Sequence record: OZ346175.1
Direction: 5' to 3' (one strand)
Source of the DNA: a phage
DNA length: 64,000 bases
The translations under genes and the position numbers were made by a program. The notes under the pieces are model-generated. The model saw nothing but the letters and a program-made list of their open reading frames with translations. It made no database searches and was not told the DNA's origin. Positions 22,898-63,539 of the stretch are shown piece after piece (positions within the stretch are counted from its first letter, which is position 1; each line of letters begins with the position of its first letter).

Positions 22898-23092
22898 ATG
22901 CCTACAATCCTAGCAATTCTTCTAAAAAATCTAGGTAGCTTCTTCTGGAAACTCATTTTATCCCTTCTAAGTGAATACATGATTGAGAAAGTGTTCTTTA
23001 AGCTTGCAAGATACCTTGCGAGTAAAACAGACACACCTATTGATGATGAGTTCGTAGATAACTTAGAAAAAGCTTTTAAGGGGGAGAAATAA
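22898..23092 (+). CDS. small membrane protein (holin-like?)
   Basis: 64 aa, hydrophobic N-terminal helix, SD GAGGTGA 7 nt upstream. Confidence 0.5.
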   Translation: MPTILAILLKNLGSFFWKLILSLLSEYMIEKVFFKLARYLASKTDTPIDDEFVDNLEKAFKGEK

Positions 23093-23464
23093 ATGAAGTG
23101 GCTAGAGGAAGCTTTTAAAAATAATATTGGTGCAATTGTAGTTGGTATTTTTAGTGTTATTGGGATGTATACCACGATGCAAGTTTCGGATGGTAAACAA
23201 GAAGTGTCTATCACAACAAAGTTACAGCAGCTAGATAATTATTCCAAAAGTAATTATTCAGCTATTCGTGATTTACAGTCTGATATGAGGCTGCTTCAGC
23301 TAGGGATGGAGAACCAGAAAGTCCAGTTAGAGAATGTTAAGGGAGAGAACGCAAAACTTACTAAGACTCTTGATAAATTCTCTGATAGTGTGAACAATCT
23401 GGCTCAATCAGTATCAGCCCTCCAAGCTATTACTGAGAAGAACACAAAGAATACTGAAAAATAA
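23093..23464 (+). CDS. membrane-anchored coiled-coil protein
   Basis: 123 aa, N-terminal TM segment IGAIVVGIFSVIGMY then heptad-rich helical domain; SD AAGGGGGAG. Confidence 0.5.
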   Translation: MKWLEEAFKNNIGAIVVGIFSVIGMYTTMQVSDGKQEVSITTKLQQLDNYSKSNYSAIRDLQSDMRLLQLGMENQKVQLENVKGENAKLTKTLDKFSDSVNNLAQSVSALQAITEKNTKNTEK

Positions 23465-46659: not shown

Positions 46660-46901
46660 TGACTTATGTAATTTACTCCAAAACTGGATGCCCTCAGTGT
46701 GAGACTGCAAAGAATTTTGCAAAAGTTCGTGGTATTGACCACGTTGTGAGAATGTTAGGGCAGGATTATGAGCTATCAGACCTGATGGATATTGCACAGA
46801 TGCCAGTTCGTCAGATGCCATTCATCATGAAAACTGATGGACAAAACCTAAAACCTGTTGGTACGCTACAGAATTTTATGGCAGAGGTGAATAATGCTTA
46901 A
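46659..46901 (+). CDS. glutaredoxin/NrdH-like redoxin
   Basis: CPQC active site in SKTGCPQCETAK; 80 aa; adjacent to nrdAB. Confidence 0.7.
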   Translation: MTYVIYSKTGCPQCETAKNFAKVRGIDHVVRMLGQDYELSDLMDIAQMPVRQMPFIMKTDGQNLKPVGTLQNFMAEVNNA

Positions 46902-55806: not shown

Positions 55807-56553
55807 ATGCGCATGGTAAATGACCACGCAGAAGTGATTAAGAGTTCAACTTCTTTAGAGACGTCTCAAGCACAGATTACAATGACACCTGAGATGTTCA
55901 GCCTTTTGAGTTCTGGTGTATACACCTTTAAAGAAAGGGCAGTGATTCGTGAACTGTCATGTAACGCAGTAGATGCTCAGAAAGAAGCTGGAAAAGAGAA
56001 CATCCCATTCCATGTGCATTTACCTACTCGTTTTGAGCCTTACTTCGAAGTTCGTGATTTTGGAACTGGATTGACTCATGATAAAGTAATGAGTTTGTAT
56101 CTGAACTATGGGGCTTCTACGAAGAATGACTCCAATGATTACATTGGTGCAATGGGTATCGGCTCAAAATCCCCATTTGCAATTGCTCAGTCATTCACAG
56201 TATCTAGCTATGTTGATGGTGTTGTTAATAAGTACTCTGTTTACCTTGAGAATGGTATCCCTCAAGTAACTAAGCTTACTACCAACCCAACAAATGAACC
56301 CAATGGTTTAGCTGTACGTGTGGCAGTTGCTGACCATCGTATTTCAAAGTTCTTTGAAGAGGCTGGTCACGTATACTCATACTTTGCTGTAAAACCAGAA
56401 AGTAACATTGTATATGATGATGTATTAGCAGATATGAATGTCATTGCCCGTGAAGAGGGTGTTTATGATGCTATGATTCATAAGCAAAGCTGGCGTTCTA
56501 GTGGCAACAGGACAGAGTTTAATGTGGTGATGGGTAATATTGCCACCCAGTGA
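55807..56553 (+). CDS. rIIA: rIIA-like protein, N-terminal GHKL ATPase part
   Basis: Bergerat-fold motifs: N-box ELSCNAVDAQ, G1 VRDFGTGL, G2 GAMGIGSKSPF; 248 aa ending in TGA. Confidence 0.5.
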   Translation: MRMVNDHAEVIKSSTSLETSQAQITMTPEMFSLLSSGVYTFKERAVIRELSCNAVDAQKEAGKENIPFHVHLPTRFEPYFEVRDFGTGLTHDKVMSLYLNYGASTKNDSNDYIGAMGIGSKSPFAIAQSFTVSSYVDGVVNKYSVYLENGIPQVTKLTTNPTNEPNGLAVRVAVADHRISKFFEEAGHVYSYFAVKPESNIVYDDVLADMNVIAREEGVYDAMIHKQSWRSSGNRTEFNVVMGNIATQ

Positions 56554-58172
56554 ACATGGAAGCATTACTTGGTGATGATTTCTTCAAAGTCTTGCCAGAG
56601 TTTTTCCGTAGGAGCGTAGACCTTGTAAACATCTACATGCCTATTGGTTCAGTTGCTATTGCAGCTTCTCGTGAAGCATTGCAGATGAATGACACGACAA
56701 AAAATGTTATCATTGAGGCTACTAAAAAGATAACTGAAGCCATTACAAAGGATGTTATCAAGAAAGTTAATAGCCAACCTACACTCATGGATGCTGCACA
56801 GGCTTATGCTGAGTTACGTTTGAACTCACGAGAGATGTTTAATGCTGTGTGTCCAAAGCTAGAGTGGGGTGGCGTTAAGCTTGATTCTCTGGAAGAAGAA
56901 TTGCTAAACATTCGTCGTGGAATTATCTACGCAGAAGACGGCTCAGTCATTTACGAACGTGACGGTAAAGGTAATATTAAGGTTGATAGGAACGGGAACA
57001 ATATCCCTAAAGTAGATTATCTTTATGACCCAGTTGCTTATGTCAAGTTTAACTCTTTAGAGAGTAAGATTCGTGCAACAGCACTATCCTACACTCAAGA
57101 GGCGAGCATGTTCAACATCTTTGGTGCAATGCGCAAAAGCCAGATTGGACAGTTTTTGTTCGTGATTAATGACCGTCGAAATAAAAATGGCACTGAGAAG
57201 ACTGTTGGGCGTAACCAAATCTTGCGTGGTGCATGTCGAGACTATGCAAGTGAGTCTAGTCTGTTTCACAGATACAATGGTATTGTCTTTGTATTCTCGA
57301 CTGAAAAAGAGTTAGATGACTTAATCAATCTGCACAAACTTGATAAAAGCTTGCTAAAGATTGTGAAAATGTCTGATAAGGAACACCATTACCAGCGTAA
57401 AGAAGCTGTAAGAGGTGTTGTAAAACTCTGGAAAGCTGTTCCAGCAGAAGGTGTAGCCTCCTACAAAGAGGTGTCAGAGGACTTAGACACAATTGAAGAA
57501 CCTCAGCTTTACATTAAGGCAATTGGTGACACAGTTGATGGCGAATGTTTTTGCTCATCTCCAGAAGATGTAGCTAAGTCAGTTGCCAATGTCATTGAAA
57601 AGACAGTCTATGTTTTCCGAAAAGCAAATTGGAAAAAGATACCAGAAGACTGGATTGAAGTAGATGAGAAGCTCTTGAGCAACAGCTTAACTAATGTTCA
57701 CTGGATTAATCATAACAGGTATATGACACGTATCTATATGAATGGTGTCCTAGACCTGACAAGCAGTTGGATTATTGCCAGAAACTTTACGTTCAATAAC
57801 AGGAAGATTTCTCGTGGCTATTGCTATTCACGGGATACAAACAAAACTATCTTCCTAGAAGGTAATGAAGAGGCTGTAGAGGCAATGTTTGGTAAAATCC
57901 AGTATGTTGCTGCACCATTTGCATACACTTACACTATTAGTGTGTTGAAAACTTTGAAAGATTGTCTTGACAACGATACAAAGCTTTACAAGAAAATTAA
58001 GAAAGCTGGTGACCGTATGGTTATTAAGGTGACAAACTACCTTTCAAAAAGAAAACAAGAAAACTTCTTGCTTTCCCATTTAGATTGGAATAAAGTGTCA
58101 CCCATCGAAGTGAGTAAGTTCTTAGGTTTTGATGTGAAGTGTGTTCCAGAAGGAACTACAGTTTACGATTAA
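56550..58172 (+). CDS. rIIA-like protein, C-terminal part (separate ORF in -1 frame)
   Basis: 540 aa ORF starting GTG 56550 / ATG 56556, immediately after stop of GHKL ORF. Confidence 0.45.
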   Translation: MNMEALLGDDFFKVLPEFFRRSVDLVNIYMPIGSVAIAASREALQMNDTTKNVIIEATKKITEAITKDVIKKVNSQPTLMDAAQAYAELRLNSREMFNAVCPKLEWGGVKLDSLEEELLNIRRGIIYAEDGSVIYERDGKGNIKVDRNGNNIPKVDYLYDPVAYVKFNSLESKIRATALSYTQEASMFNIFGAMRKSQIGQFLFVINDRRNKNGTEKTVGRNQILRGACRDYASESSLFHRYNGIVFVFSTEKELDDLINLHKLDKSLLKIVKMSDKEHHYQRKEAVRGVVKLWKAVPAEGVASYKEVSEDLDTIEEPQLYIKAIGDTVDGECFCSSPEDVAKSVANVIEKTVYVFRKANWKKIPEDWIEVDEKLLSNSLTNVHWINHNRYMTRIYMNGVLDLTSSWIIARNFTFNNRKISRGYCYSRDTNKTIFLEGNEEAVEAMFGKIQYVAAPFAYTYTISVLKTLKDCLDNDTKLYKKIKKAGDRMVIKVTNYLSKRKQENFLLSHLDWNKVSPIEVSKFLGFDVKCVPEGTTVYD

Positions 58173-59334: not shown

Positions 59335-59343
59335 TTTCTTAAA

Positions 59344-59366
59344 AGGCTGCTTCGGCGGCCTTTTTT
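59344..59366 (+). terminator. rho-independent terminator
   Basis: GGCTGC-TTCG-GCGGCC hairpin plus TTTTTT. Confidence 0.7.
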
Positions 59367-59368
59367 AT

Positions 59369-59396
59369 TTGTATTTTGTGCAGAGTGCTGTATAAT
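59369..59396 (+). promoter_or_regulatory. sigma70-like promoter TTGTAT-N16-TATAAT
   Basis: Perfect -10 TATAAT 59391-59396, -35-like TTGTAT 59369-59374. Confidence 0.45.
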
Positions 59397-59427: not shown

Positions 59428-59976
59428 ATGAAGAAATTGATTCTAGGTTTGTGCTTAATGTTTACAGCACACTTATCTTATGCAGTTGACTGCCCAGAGC
59501 TATCAATTAGCCAAAAAGTAAACATGTTAAAAGCTTACCAGTATGGTGAGAATAACATGGGTAAAGGTTGGGGTATCACTCTAGCTGCTATAGCCTTACA
59601 AGAGTCAGAGTTAGGTCTGAAGGTAGAGAATAAAAAGACACATGATTATGGTATCTTCCAGAATCACTTGAAGACTGTTGTAAAGCGTAACAAAATCAGT
59701 CCTAATGTGGCTAAAAAGAAACTCTTAAAAGACTTTGACTATGCTGCTAAGGAAACTCACAAAGAGCTTGAGTTTTGGACAAAGGTGCATGGTCAGCCAA
59801 AGTCAAAGAAGACTTTACAAAAAGTCTTAGCATCATATAATGCTGGGTATTCGTACAGAATCCCTAAAGCTAAGAAATATTCTCAAGATGTTTATAACAA
59901 TATGAAAGTAATTGCTCAATGTGAATTTGCAACAAACATTTCTAAGGTAAACCATGAAAAAATTAAGAAAGTCTGA
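59428..59976 (+). CDS. lytic transglycosylase (SLT domain) with signal peptide; candidate endolysin
   Basis: Signal peptide MKKLILGLCLMFTAHLSYA; SLT-like catalytic region AAIALQESELG. Confidence 0.55.
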   Translation: MKKLILGLCLMFTAHLSYAVDCPELSISQKVNMLKAYQYGENNMGKGWGITLAAIALQESELGLKVENKKTHDYGIFQNHLKTVVKRNKISPNVAKKKLLKDFDYAAKETHKELEFWTKVHGQPKSKKTLQKVLASYNAGYSYRIPKAKKYSQDVYNNMKVIAQCEFATNISKVNHEKIKKV

Positions 59977-60649
59977 TGAAGTATTGTGCCATGCTTATGA
60001 CTTACATCCTCATGAGTTAGTTCTTGATTCCTGTGTATGGACTCCAGAACAGTGCAGGGATTTTGAAGACACCGCAAGAGAAGTTGTATGTTCACTTGAA
60101 GAGTTCCACACATCAGAGCCAATTGTGAATGTTGTAGATAAAGAGACTGGACAAACTATAGGTGTAAGTCGTGATAGCTTAGTCATAGTCAATAAAGACC
60201 TTGTAGAAAAAGGTAACCTCATCTTAGCAGATATTGATGGTGTTCTTACAAATTTTAATCACGAAGATTGCTCAACGGAATTGACTGATGGGTCATTCTC
60301 ACAGTACACTAATCTTCTTGACTCTGTAAGAGCAAAACCAACGTATGTCTTTAGTATTATTGATGCAATTACTAATCATGCTGCCATTGGACTCTTGACA
60401 GCGAGAGGTGAATCTCAGAGAATACCTACTGAGATGTTTTTAAGGCACAATATAGAGCATGATTACTTGCTTTTTATGCGTGGTTTTGGAACTAACTCTA
60501 TAAGTGCAGAAAGTTTGAAAGTGAGGATGATTCAATCTTGCATTCTTCCTTACTTTAATATAGTATGTTTTATAGAAGATACAGAGAAGAATGTTCAGAA
60601 GGTAAACAGAATACTTCCACACATCAAAACCATGTTAGTTAAACATTGA
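59954..60649 (+). CDS. HAD-superfamily hydrolase, 5'(3')-deoxyribonucleotidase-like (putative)
   Basis: HAD motif I ILADIDGVLTNF. Confidence 0.45.
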   Translation: MKKLRKSDEVLCHAYDLHPHELVLDSCVWTPEQCRDFEDTAREVVCSLEEFHTSEPIVNVVDKETGQTIGVSRDSLVIVNKDLVEKGNLILADIDGVLTNFNHEDCSTELTDGSFSQYTNLLDSVRAKPTYVFSIIDAITNHAAIGLLTARGESQRIPTEMFLRHNIEHDYLLFMRGFGTNSISAESLKVRMIQSCILPYFNIVCFIEDTEKNVQKVNRILPHIKTMLVKH

Positions 60650-60659
60650 GAGAAAACTT

Positions 60660-61124
60660 ATGAACAATATCATTACGGTAGCACTGGATGTTACGGCAAA
60701 CAAATCTGAAGTAGTTCGTAACATTATCAAGAGCAACTTTGAGGGTAAAATTTTCCGTGCTGTCAACGTAAAAGCAGACGGTAACATCCGAGAGTATCGT
60801 GCTCTTTTGAATGTTAAGAAACACGTAAAAGGTTCTGGCTCAACCACAGCACACAAAGAAAACCTGATGACTATCTATGATATGGGGATGGCTTCAGAAT
60901 TAGGTGCTGAAGGTATCGTTAAAGAAGGTGCTCCGTATCGCTCTTTCAATCTGGAAACTGCTCTTATGCTTTCCTTTACAAGTGGTTCTAAAACAACTAC
61001 TTATCTCTTTACTGATGCTGCAACGGTATCTGCTATCAAGGATAGCACTGTCAAAGCTGGGGTAGCTGCTGCTGCAAAAGCTTCTTCGATGGCTGCAAAT
61101 GTCCTTGCTAAAGTCCTCGGTTAA
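60660..61124 (+). CDS. hypothetical protein
   Basis: 154 aa ORF, Ala-rich C-terminus. Confidence 0.5.
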   Translation: MNNIITVALDVTANKSEVVRNIIKSNFEGKIFRAVNVKADGNIREYRALLNVKKHVKGSGSTTAHKENLMTIYDMGMASELGAEGIVKEGAPYRSFNLETALMLSFTSGSKTTTYLFTDAATVSAIKDSTVKAGVAAAAKASSMAANVLAKVLG

Positions 61125-61135
61125 GGTTAAGATAC

Positions 61136-61157
61136 AGGCTCCTTCGGGAGCCTTTTT
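61136..61157 (+). terminator. rho-independent terminator
   Basis: AGGCTCC-TTCG-GGAGCCT perfect hairpin plus TTTTT. Confidence 0.75.
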
Positions 61158-61176
61158 CATTTCAGGAGATTGTTAA

Positions 61177-61524
61177 ATGACATTTAAAGAGTTCTGTCAA
61201 GCTACTTTCATAATTGTTTTCTTAGTTGGGGCAGGTGTCTGGGGAGGATACTCTTACAGAGACTATCAAGTTGCTGAAGCTGAGCTAAATAATGAGAAAC
61301 TAATAAGTGTTGCCAAAGATGCTTATCAGGAAGGTTTAGCCACACTGAGCACCAATTACAAAAATGATTTGAAAGATGTGCTTGCTAAGAATAAGCATAC
61401 AAAAGAGGTACTAACGTATGAAAAGACTAAGCCAGAGTTTTATAATGTTTGTGTTACTGATAATTATGTCAGGGTGTTCAACGAACAAAGTGAGCAGTAC
61501 ATTCAAAAACTCCCAAGTAAGTGA
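61177..61524 (+). CDS. i-spanin-like protein (N-terminal TM plus periplasmic helical domain)
   Basis: TM segment FIIVFLVGAGVWGGY followed by charged helical region; overlapping lipoprotein ORF at 3' end. Confidence 0.45.
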   Translation: MTFKEFCQATFIIVFLVGAGVWGGYSYRDYQVAEAELNNEKLISVAKDAYQEGLATLSTNYKNDLKDVLAKNKHTKEVLTYEKTKPEFYNVCVTDNYVRVFNEQSEQYIQKLPSK

Positions 61525-61687
61525 GAGTGATAAGTACACTCAAGAAGAATCACGGTATAGCATCAAAGGCAACACAGGTAGTGATGTAGCAGCAGCACTT
61601 GAGTTCTACCGTGACGGATTTTACCAGTGTACAATCAAAGCTAATAACCTTATTGACATGATTTTATTAGGGAATAAGCAGCAATGA
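61418..61687 (+). CDS. o-spanin-like lipoprotein, overlapping i-spanin in alternate frame
   Basis: Signal peptide with lipobox-like IIMSGC; starts inside upstream ORF in different frame. Confidence 0.45.
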   Translation: MKRLSQSFIMFVLLIIMSGCSTNKVSSTFKNSQVSESDKYTQEESRYSIKGNTGSDVAAALEFYRDGFYQCTIKANNLIDMILLGNKQQ

Positions 61688-61953
61688 CAGAGAACGAAGA
61701 TACTTTCTATGTAGAAGGGTACTTACTGCTACCACGACCAAAAGAAACTTATATGCGGGTTGATTTCTCACCAACCATTATGGATAACGTGATGTGTCAT
61801 ATCTTTATGCAAGGTGTCACAGCACAACTTAAGCATGTTGGTAAAGAGTGCAAAATAAAGGTTGACACTCATCCAGAAATCAAAGAGAATCACTACACAT
61901 GGTTCTTACCAGACTCTAAAGAAATCTTAGCAGTTCTTAAAACGAGGAAGTAG
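61684..61953 (+). CDS. hypothetical protein
   Basis: 89 aa ORF. Confidence 0.45.
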   Translation: MTENEDTFYVEGYLLLPRPKETYMRVDFSPTIMDNVMCHIFMQGVTAQLKHVGKECKIKVDTHPEIKENHYTWFLPDSKEILAVLKTRK

Positions 61954-62679: not shown

Positions 62680-63465
62680 ATGGGTATTGTAAAAATCATC
62701 AATGGGGATATCTTCTCAGCATTTGATAAAGGTAAGTTTGATATTATTGGTCACGGTTGTAACTGTATGAACTTAATGGGTGCAGGTATCGCTGATAAGA
62801 TTTCTAAACTTTACCCAAAAGCATATGAGACCGATACAGAAGTTTATCTGTATGCAGGTGGTATAAGTCACAAACCCTGTGAAAATTTGCTAGGCAATTT
62901 CTCTGTAGCACGTTTAAAACAAGGCCGTATAGCCAATCTTTACACTCAGCTTAAGACTGGTAAAGATGCCCGATACAGTGATTTAGAGTCATCTTTGAAG
63001 CAACTTAACAGATACTGTGAAGTTAATCAGTTGAAGAAAGTTGGCTTACCTATGATTGGTGCAGGTATCGGCGGACTAGACCCTCAAGCCGTCACAGTTA
63101 TCATTAATCAGGTGATGAAGAGTGTAGATGTTTATCTGTATGTCTACGAAGGAGAGATGTACCACAAGTTACGCTCAGGTTGGAAGAATTACTGTGAACC
63201 AGAATACTTTGCAGGTGTAGTAGTGTTCATAGACGACACAGTTACCCTCTTCAGACGAAGAAAAGGTAAGGTACATCAAAGTAACCCTCCGGTTGAAAAG
63301 ATGTCTCTAAGTAACGCTCTAGTTACCCACCTGTCGAAGAGCAATCACAGGATTGCAGTAACATTTGGCAGTGATGCAGATACATATATCTATGCAAGAA
63401 CTGATGAGGATATCGAGTTAATCTTCTCTTCACCAGAGCTTACCTTCTTAGACGCAAAGAACTAA
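62680..63465 (+). CDS. macro-domain protein (ADP-ribose binding/processing) with C-terminal extension
   Basis: N-terminal GDIFSAFDKGKFDIIGHGCNCMNLMGAGIA and LPMIGAGIGGLDP resemble macro-domain binding loops. Confidence 0.55.
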   Translation: MGIVKIINGDIFSAFDKGKFDIIGHGCNCMNLMGAGIADKISKLYPKAYETDTEVYLYAGGISHKPCENLLGNFSVARLKQGRIANLYTQLKTGKDARYSDLESSLKQLNRYCEVNQLKKVGLPMIGAGIGGLDPQAVTVIINQVMKSVDVYLYVYEGEMYHKLRSGWKNYCEPEYFAGVVVFIDDTVTLFRRRKGKVHQSNPPVEKMSLSNALVTHLSKSNHRIAVTFGSDADTYIYARTDEDIELIFSSPELTFLDAKN

Positions 63466-63495
63466 GAAACTTCGTAGTAAATTCACAATAGACTA

Positions 63496-63539
63496 AGCCT
63501 TTCTTATCTGGTAAATTTTTCAGGTAAGGAGGGCTTTTT
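63496..63539 (+). terminator. terminator-like hairpin with G.U pairs
   Basis: AAGCCTTTCTTATCTG / CAGGTAAGGAGGGCTT arms followed by TTTTT. Confidence 0.4.

Follow-up and report, generated by a model that had tools for sequence, protein, structure and literature searches.

An overlapped spanin pair and a putative Vs.1-like secreted peptidoglycan glycosidase as two probably independent features of a Felixounavirus genome

Holin-lysin cassettes were reported to be absent from phage Felix O1 in its genome paper (PMC3185647), and in Felix O1-like phages the endolysin, the spanins and a putative holin are described as scattered round the genome (Moogle paper, PMC4319497). Felix01, FO1a and UAB_phi87 have been grouped among the 'overlapped' spanins, as have FSL_SP-010/FSL_SP-012 and phiEa104/PhiEa21-4 (Kongari et al., 2018, PMC6139136). 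The present analysis concerns 64,000 nucleotides of phage DNA from record OZ346175.1 (referred to here as the window), and within it a gene for a secreted SLT-like protein (59428-59976) and a pair of overlapping genes for an inner-membrane and an outer-membrane spanin (i-spanin and o-spanin, 61177-61687). A sequence-only reading of the window had joined these genes into a candidate lysis cassette. It is considered here, with a probability of about 0.8, that the region holds two independent and previously recognised features, the spanin pair and a Vs.1-like enzyme, and not one cassette. The window was found to come from a Felixounavirus (Felix O1-like myovirus), as the 5.5 kb surrounding these genes are 95-97% identical to more than 200 Felixounavirus records, and colinearity with Escherichia phage LinBro extends over the full window, which starts at the terminase gene and ends shortly beyond a macro-domain gene.

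The locus at 61177-61687 is an overlapped two-component spanin of an already catalogued kind, its function being assigned from sequence features and by analogy. All three open reading frames (ORFs) on which the sequence-only reading had been built were found where it placed them. Its view of this pair as Rz/Rz1-like and overlapped was supported by a match of the i-spanin to PHROG 1152, 'Rz-like spanin' (9e-42), by the i-/o-spanin annotations already carried by the GenBank records of relatives, and by the Felix O1 entry among the 'overlapped' systems (PMC6139136). The best PHROG match of the o-spanin is the unnamed family 4180, followed by a weaker match to PHROG 456, 'Rz-like spanin' (5e-5). 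An AGGAGA ribosome-binding site precedes the i-spanin gene at 61164-61169. Residues 9-27 of the product form a 19-residue uncharged stretch, the rest of the protein being polar, and it would have a single N-terminal transmembrane domain (TMD) in N-in topology with its bulk in the periplasm. The conserved C-terminal motif of the i-spanin, EK..P.F.N.C..D.Y...FNE, includes Cys92.

The lipoprotein ORF starts inside the gene for the TMD protein in another frame, as had been proposed. It lies in the +1 frame, overlaps the i-spanin gene by 107 nt and continues for 163 nt past the i-spanin stop, which gives the overlapped architecture. Its lipoprotein signal was found to be MKRLSQSFIMFVLLIIMSG followed by C (Cys20, codon at 61475-61477) and then by Ser-Thr. 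The residue at position -3 of the lipobox is Met, which falls outside the strict [LVI] consensus; o-spanins with non-consensus lipoboxes have been documented (PMC6139136). As the Ser at position +2 is not an inner-membrane retention signal, sorting to the outer membrane is predicted. The mature form of 70 aa has a conserved motif, LE[FYW][YW]..(4 residues)..C....N.L, in which the cysteine is Cys71. A periplasmic cysteine is thus present in each protein (Cys92 and Cys71), in keeping with the rule that two-component spanin systems have at least one, as 507 of 528 do (PMC6139136).

Both frames are widely conserved. By tblastn the i-frame was found in 403 phage records, phiEco32-like podoviruses included, and the o-frame in 341, down to ~29% identity. 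The pair was extracted from Citrobacter phage Michonne (Mooglevirus), two Kolesnikvirus genomes, E. coli phage Bas89 and Proteus siphovirus Isfahan, and in every extracted pair the lipoprotein frame begins in the 3' part of the gene for the TMD protein and extends past its stop. Residues of the o-spanin that are invariant among six divergent sequences are M1, K2, L4, Cys20, Ser21, Thr22, Gly54, Leu61, Cys71, Asn76 and Leu78, while those of the i-spanin that are invariant across lineages include Glu82, Lys83, Asn90, Cys92, Tyr97 and Phe101-Asn-Glu. Codon positions were analysed in seven Felixounavirus sequences only, a small sample, in which 22 of the 27 variable columns of the o-only part are at third codon positions of the o-frame, and variable columns number 3 of 107 in the overlap as against 19 of 241 upstream and 27 of 163 downstream. 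This third-position pattern, together with the few changes in the overlap, is the pattern expected of two translated and selected frames, and purifying selection is visible in both spanin frames of these alignments.

Many GenBank records leave the lipoprotein ORF unannotated or give it different starts, which might be taken to mean that it is a chance alternative-frame ORF that is not translated, and that only the TMD protein is real. This explanation is considered extremely improbable in view of the tblastn conservation and the third-position pattern, the start, lipobox Cys and C-terminal Cys that are invariant across lineages, and a GAGG motif located 9 nt upstream of the start. Overlapped o-spanins are also known to be systematically missed by gene callers (PMC6139136).

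The records of close relatives were found to differ over the start of the o-spanin, using the equivalents of 61418, 61466 or 61490 or omitting the coding sequence (CDS). Starts at the equivalents of 61466 and 61490 delete the signal peptide and the lipobox context. The MKRL start, invariant across four phage lineages, indicates that 61418 is the true start of the o-spanin, and it is this MKRL codon that should be annotated, several GenBank records at present being truncated or without the gene. The o-spanin stop overlaps the start of the next ORF (ATGA), a conserved 89-aa protein at 61684-61953 that matches PHROG 4391, which suggests translational coupling.

In Isfahan, positions 1196-2740 contain two small ORFs, a TIGR02594 hydrolase gene, the i-spanin gene (2323-2616) and an overlapped o-spanin gene with several possible starts between 2465 and 2501 and its end at 2740. 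The record either lacks these genes or labels them hypothetical, and what the locus appears to contain is a complete lysis cassette left unannotated. The position of the pair directly after the hydrolase gene and the small ORFs, as in a conventional cassette, supports the assignment of this family as spanins.

Sequences of the Felix O1 type were also met in records with unexpected hosts (MG065664.1, GU169904.1 and OK283618.1). Near-identical sequence is present in 'Campylobacter phage A132' (93% protein identity for the o-spanin by tblastn) and in 'Staphylococcus phage SA1' (98% nucleotide identity), which suggests contamination or mis-assigned hosts for these two, and 'Listeria phage LPML1' has a distant o-spanin match only (47% protein identity).

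The protein encoded at 59428-59976 is, judging from its sequence and a structural model, a GH23/SLT-fold peptidoglycan glycosidase with a putative enzymatic activity. The signal-peptide-bearing SLT-like protein that had been proposed was confirmed in its N-terminus (MKKLILGLCLMFTAHLSYA before the predicted cleavage site, VD after it), in its GH23 fold and in an invariant glutamate, Glu59, which is part of the ALQESELG motif. Its gene has an AGGAGA ribosome-binding site 4 nt upstream of the ATG. A search of PDB sequences with the single protein (phmmer) returned no match, and a profile of the family placed EtgA first (8urn, E = 7e-4) and goose-type lysozymes next. All 11 diverse family members examined match Pfam SLT (PF01464) individually (E ≤ 0.01, best 8e-12). 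An AlphaFold model built on 15 homologues had a predicted local distance difference test score (pLDDT) of 84.7, with a core above 95, and its Foldseek matches were all GH23 folds, namely g-type lysozymes, a GH23 chitinase, EtgA, the catalytic domains of Slt Cj0843 and MltF, and phiKZ gp144. The Foldseek probability was 1.00 for goose-type lysozymes, EtgA and the catalytic domain of Slt Cj0843. In a viral structure library the model was matched by small phage proteins labelled 'SLT domain-containing', with TM-scores of 0.66-0.76.

The active site of this fold is also conserved. Residues E59, G63, G75, Q78, S136, Y137, N138, G140 and Y151 are invariant in the family and S60 is nearly so, and E59, Q78, Y137-N138-G140 and Y151 align with E42, Q65, Y116-N117-G119 and Y133 of EtgA. 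Asp73 aligns with D60 of EtgA, which is catalytically important and the equivalent of lysozyme D52 (PMC10880428). The Ounavirinae conserve D73, where the T4 type, like Slt70, has Ala. From this alignment, muramidase chemistry would be possible in the window protein beside that of a lytic transglycosylase.

At the N-terminus of the SLT-like protein, two basic residues are accompanied by a hydrophobic core of 11 residues, and a site of the small-x-small (-3/-1) type follows residue 19 (S-Y-A, then V); a signal-like segment is kept in every lineage of the family. Members of the family have either both Cys22 and Cys165 or neither, which fits a likely disulfide between the two that would form in the periplasm. 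A signal-anchor-release (SAR) endolysin was considered and rejected, as a SAR anchor would be an uncleaved, weakly hydrophobic TMD of ~16-20 residues, and the core here has only 11 and is followed by a predicted cleavage site. Many phage SLT/GH23 domains are found in tape-measure or tail proteins, as in the viral-library matches of the model, and a virion-associated peptidoglycan hydrolase acting at DNA entry was therefore weighed as an explanation of the protein; the predicted cleavable signal peptide and the small size, the absence of the protein from the list of Felix O1 structural proteins (PMC3185647) and the location of the gene in the early/middle region next to rII, outside the morphogenesis block, make such a role very improbable.

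The product of 59428-59976 is, on sequence comparison, an orthologue of T4 Vs.1. A note on ORF3 in the Felix O1 record already mentions similarity to the T4 '20.7 kDa protein in the vs-regB intergenic region', and with the RB7 CDS annotated vs.1 tblastn gave an alignment (E = 4e-9) that covers 85% of the length at 31.6% identity. In both RB7 and Klebsiella phage Mexia the matching gene has regB and vs as its neighbours and is named 'vs.1' or 'lytic transglycosylase domain-containing protein'. Homologues were found by tblastn in 2,128 phage records, among them Tequatrovirus and other T4-like genera, Ackermannviridae, large Vibrio and Aeromonas phages, and others, and all contexts of homologues that were examined are phage genomes. 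A homologue of ~37% identity on a distant metagenomic phage contig has the same gene order, rIIB, SLT and then a HAD/polynucleotide kinase (PNK) gene, and another distant phage contig with a homologue also encodes a Phage_lysozyme. On one distant contig bearing an SLT gene (L012), a simple lipobox scan with a crude filter gave no spanin-like lipoprotein ORF near that gene, a weak negative. A further distant homologue is located on a 215-kb contig (L013) of GCA_053226485.1, an assembly named 'Campylobacter coli'; this contig also encodes chimallin (PF25677) and is probably the genome of a nucleus-forming jumbo phage within a bacterial assembly.

What the Vs.1 family does for the phage is the point of most interest. 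One explanation is that the enzyme acts early in the periplasm, independently of a holin and apart from lysis, for example by local peptidoglycan remodelling that affects superinfection or 'lysis from without', or by releasing muropeptides that alter host physiology; in general terms, it would be a Sec-exported glycosidase deployed well before lysis by large virulent phages of Gram-negative hosts, in a role distinct from endolysis. Predicted holin-independent Sec export, a sigma-70-like promoter candidate of its own directly after rIIB, and conservation of the family in more than 2,000 large virulent phages, all with another endolysin, agree with this. In T4, vs.1 has been classed as an early RNA and a middle protein (PMC9697503 supplement), and gp3, the product of Felix O1 ORF3, is not among the detected virion proteins (PMC3185647). 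Against these points stand the Felix O1 reverse transcription PCR (RT-PCR) result, which places ORF3 at 25 min together with the lysin (PMC3185647), and the outcome of literature searches for a Vs.1 function, in which only a comparative-genomics remark from 2006 (Nolan et al.) and no later functional work was found. A pre-lysis role is accordingly put forward as a tentative possibility. Should it be true, the enzyme might for example remodel the sacculus and so control superinfection, lysis timing or the readiness of the spanins, and Felix O1-like phages growing on E. coli K-12 would offer a tractable test system.

The proposed cassette itself was not borne out. The SLT gene and the spanin genes are parted by two genes unrelated to lysis, a HAD-type phosphatase gene and ORF5, and by a conserved intrinsic terminator; the literature on the group likewise has its lysis genes scattered. 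For the terminator after rIIB and the one ahead of the i-spanin gene, ASO1A and Michonne (~78% identical) carry annotations at the same positions, and a third terminator-like hairpin with a UUCG loop and T-run was found by a terminator scan at 63495-63536. On these signals, one predicted unit comprises ORF5 together with the SLT and HAD phosphatase genes, and the spanin genes open the next. The two modules also occur independently of each other in other phages and are ~70 kb apart in T4-like phages.

The SLT protein is likewise not supported as the lysin of the phage, a part which it had been given in the sequence-only reading. The annotated lysin of the group is a GH24 lysozyme encoded elsewhere, Felix O1 gp35 (GH24 Phage_lysozyme, PMC3185647), a protein of 154 aa in the group whose LinBro counterpart is at 75587-76051 on the minus strand. 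A tblastn search for a GH24 lysozyme counterpart in the window gave none, which places the gene beyond the end of the window, ~14 kb from the SLT gene and on the other strand. No holin gene is located between the SLT and spanin genes, as had been stated, and none is adjacent to them among the ORFs of the window; holin candidates are ~36 kb from the SLT gene. These are two small ORFs after the tail-fibre genes, 22898-23092 and 23093-23464, one or the other of which is labelled 'holin' in many records and both of which match PHROG families of unknown function. The first had been named as a holin alternative in the sequence-only reading. The second encodes 123 aa with one TMD at ~12-29 followed by a long polar, coiled-coil-like domain, and is a 'putative holin' in UAB_69. 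The ORFs at 46894 and 49447, which had been suggested as alternative holins, have PHROG matches of unknown function or 'membrane protein', and in the Felix O1 paper five holin candidates are listed without evidence (PMC3185647).

It may still be asked whether the three genes act as a cassette in which the Sec-secreted SLT protein serves as a holin-independent endolysin, in the style of signal-peptide or SAR endolysins, and the spanins finish lysis. The fold of the protein is muralytic and its catalytic residues are conserved, it bears an export signal, its gene is 1.2 kb upstream of the spanin genes, it is labelled 'putative lysin' in some GenBank records, and Felix O1 ORF3, ORF6 and ORF35 share an RT-PCR timing class (PMC3185647). 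This is nevertheless judged quite unlikely. Apart from the separate GH24 lysozyme and the intervening genes and terminator, T4-like phages have the endolysin gene e in addition to vs.1, which is distant from their spanin genes, the 11-residue core is followed by a cleavage site and is not a SAR anchor, and no cassette is recognised in the two papers on the group (PMC4319497, PMC3185647).

Several observations weigh against the interpretation of two independent features, or against parts of it. By gel-based RT-PCR of Felix O1, ORFs 1, 3, 4, 6 and 35 were assigned to the 25-min class and ORFs 2 and 5 to the 10-min class (PMC3185647). With ORF3, ORF4, ORF6 and the lysin ORF35 in one class, timing does not separate the SLT gene from the lysis genes, and such coarse timing leaves room for a contribution of the SLT protein to lysis. 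A literature search for a Felixounavirus transcriptome gave nothing relevant. The promoter candidate ahead of the SLT gene resembles the consensus only weakly and fell under the scan threshold, and no convincing promoter was found ahead of the spanins in a consensus scan; a TTGCTA-N17-TAAGAT match just upstream of the terminator, found by eye, was judged too weak as a spanin promoter. With a weak promoter for the one and none evident for the other, it is the predicted terminators that delimit the proposed units. The SLT-like protein of the window alone scored 19.2 bits against Pfam SLT, where the gathering threshold is 21.3. The N-terminal TMD proposed for the i-spanin stands, as seen above from its uncharged stretch, and the helical periplasmic domain proposed with it is weakly supported, a single-sequence AlphaFold model of low confidence (pLDDT 51) having helices at 27-71 and then short strands. 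BLASTP of the Felix-type spanins against T4 PseT.3/PseT.2 detected no similarity (E = 16 and 9.3), on which ground homology to this experimentally tested pair was rejected, and the spanin mechanism is therefore modelled on the lambda and T4 paradigms. A literature search found no experimental test of the Felix O1-type spanin family. The coordinates of the features discussed are given in Table 1.

Table 1. Positions in the window of the spanin locus, the SLT-like gene and the features that flank or separate them
Feature	Coordinates	Strand	Remarks
Putative Vs.1-family secreted GH23/SLT-fold peptidoglycan glycosidase, 182 aa	59428..59976	+	Predicted signal peptide aa 1-19; Glu59 predicted catalytic
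i-spanin gene, 115 aa	61177..61524	+	Predicted TMD ~aa 9-27, periplasmic domain; PHROG 1152
o-spanin gene, 89-aa precursor	61418..61687	+	+1 frame relative to i-spanin; lipobox; PHROG 4180/456
Dual-coding overlap, 107 nt	61418..61524	+	Encodes i-spanin C-terminal motif and o-spanin signal peptide/lipobox
Predicted intrinsic terminator after rIIB	59341..59364	+	10-bp stem, UUCG loop, T-run; upstream end of SLT unit
Sigma-70-like promoter candidate	59369..59396	+	TTGTAT, 16 nt, TATAAT; read from sequence; ASO1A annotation, 3 mismatches
Predicted intrinsic terminator between ORF5 and i-spanin gene	61136..61153	+	7-bp stem, UUCG loop, T-run
HAD-type phosphatase gene ('polynucleotide kinase' in databases)	59954..60649	+	PHROG 3970/415/505 matches; relatives' annotations
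ORF5, conserved, final gene ahead of terminator	60660..61124	+	Felix O1 ORF5; PHROG 2267

For the spanins, the following sequence of events is proposed, in which the complex and the fusion step are drawn by analogy from lambda Rz/Rz1 and T4 PseT.3/PseT.2. The N-terminal TMD would hold the i-spanin in the inner membrane. The o-spanin, once exported, would receive its lipid at Cys20, be cut by signal peptidase II and then be sorted to the outer membrane, into its inner leaflet. The conserved Cys-containing C-terminal segments of the two proteins may then pair across the periplasm. Once a separately encoded holin and the GH24 endolysin had removed the peptidoglycan mesh, the spanin complexes would fuse the inner and outer membranes and so complete lysis. 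The SLT gene, for its part, would have its own promoter, from which the HAD phosphatase gene and ORF5 would be transcribed as well, and the enzyme would be exported by Sec as a soluble periplasmic protein that reaches the peptidoglycan without a holin. It is most likely to have a non-essential accessory role in muralytic activity or remodelling during infection, and not to be the endolysin that drives lysis.

In the Felix O1 numbering the gene order of the region is rIIA (ORF1), rIIB (ORF2), the SLT-like ORF3, ORF4 ('polynucleotide kinase'), ORF5, the i-spanin (ORF6), the o-spanin (ORF7), ORF8-ORF12 and a macro-domain phosphatase (ORF13). The HAD phosphatase gene overlaps the SLT gene by 23 nt. 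Matches of its product are restricted to the HAD phosphatase portion of Pnk profiles (positions 158-282 of 295 in PHROG 505); a DIDGV motif is present and no P-loop was seen by eye, and the product is probably a phosphatase-only protein. The macro-domain protein is encoded at 62680-63465 (Pfam Macro, 6.5e-8) and is the counterpart of T4 Tk.4. No meaningful Pfam match was obtained for either spanin, for the PNK-like ORF or for ORF5, and NCBIfam profiles run against the seven proteins tested gave noise only, far under the cut-offs.

The rIIA gene of the window (55807-58172) was found to be broken into two ORFs, 55807-56553 and 56550-58172, with residues 1-246 and 243-788 of LinBro rIIA falling in different frames. 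The frame is broken between 56544 and 56545, where one nucleotide is deleted by comparison with LinBro (TTGCC-ACCCAG against TTGCCTATCCAG), at a site which is not a homopolymer. The split gene is either a genuine frameshift mutant or an assembly error.

Since annotations of close relatives or publications on them already cover everything described here, the novelty of the locus is low. Besides the o-spanin start, one correction of annotation follows, in that the SLT ORF would be better labelled a Vs.1-like secreted SLT-domain protein than a 'lysin' or 'endolysin'. The interest that remains is in the role of the Vs.1 family, a predicted exported enzyme that occurs beside a canonical endolysin in T4-like, Felix O1-like, Vi1-like and other large phages. 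An account of this role would close a minor gap, though one of long standing, in the biology of T4-type phages, and the family might matter for phage engineering or for the mining of enzybiotics.

Among described enzymes, the SLT-like protein resembles EtgA, IpgF and IagB of type III secretion systems, which are also small, Sec-exported, single-domain GH23 enzymes. The active-site E, D, Q, Y-N-x-G and Y all align with those of EtgA and a disulfide is found in both (predicted in the window protein), although the identity is only ~17% in the structural alignment. The window protein differs in being phage-encoded and in having no secretion-system partner such as EscI. A secretion-system-associated glycosidase of the EtgA type was considered and rejected, as the neighbours are rIIB, the HAD phosphatase gene and phage ORFs. 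T4 Vs.1 is alike in size (~181-182 aa), in its N-terminal signal-like segment and in the SLT motifs E-S, G-x-F-Q, S-Y-N-x-G and Y, all of which are conserved. The Felix type has D73 and the Cys22/Cys165 pair, whereas the T4 type has Ala and lacks both cysteines, and the neighbours are rIIB and the PNK-like gene in the window as against regB and vs in T4.

The spanin pair shares with lambda Rz/Rz1 and P2 LysB/LysC the combination of a predicted type II inner-membrane protein with an outer-membrane lipoprotein, overlapping frames and periplasmic cysteines, but unlike those pairs it is outside any holin-endolysin cassette. Rz1 is fully embedded in Rz, whereas the window o-spanin passes the i-spanin stop, like that of P2; lambda Rz1 is a short proline-rich peptide, and the window o-spanin, 70 aa long when mature, carries a conserved C-terminal motif that is probably structured. 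The T4 genes PseT.3/PseT.2 are similarly placed, since both pairs are away from the holin and endolysin genes, near a pseT-type (PNK/phosphatase) gene and transcribed with early/middle genes, and the precursors are similar in size (117/98 aa in T4, 115/89 aa in the window). The T4 genes are 'separated' and the window genes 'overlapped', and T4 has no cysteine in the i-spanin and two in the o-spanin where the window pair has one periplasmic Cys in each (T4 counts from PMC6139136). Counterparts of several 'non-essential' early/middle T4 genes are present in the region, namely rIIA, rIIB, vs.1, a pseT-like phosphatase gene with a spanin pair near it, and a tk.4-like macro-domain gene. The region is thus a mosaic of T4-type early/middle accessory genes, with lysis functions dispersed as in T4. 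The closest relatives of the pair are Felix O1 ORF6/ORF7 and their orthologues, which are the same genes, with 95-100% protein identity within Felixounavirus and ~77-79% to Michonne, and with the same overlap architecture, lipobox position and flanking genes. From the Felix O1 spanin pair it shows no difference of substance, and the window copy represents one more isolate.

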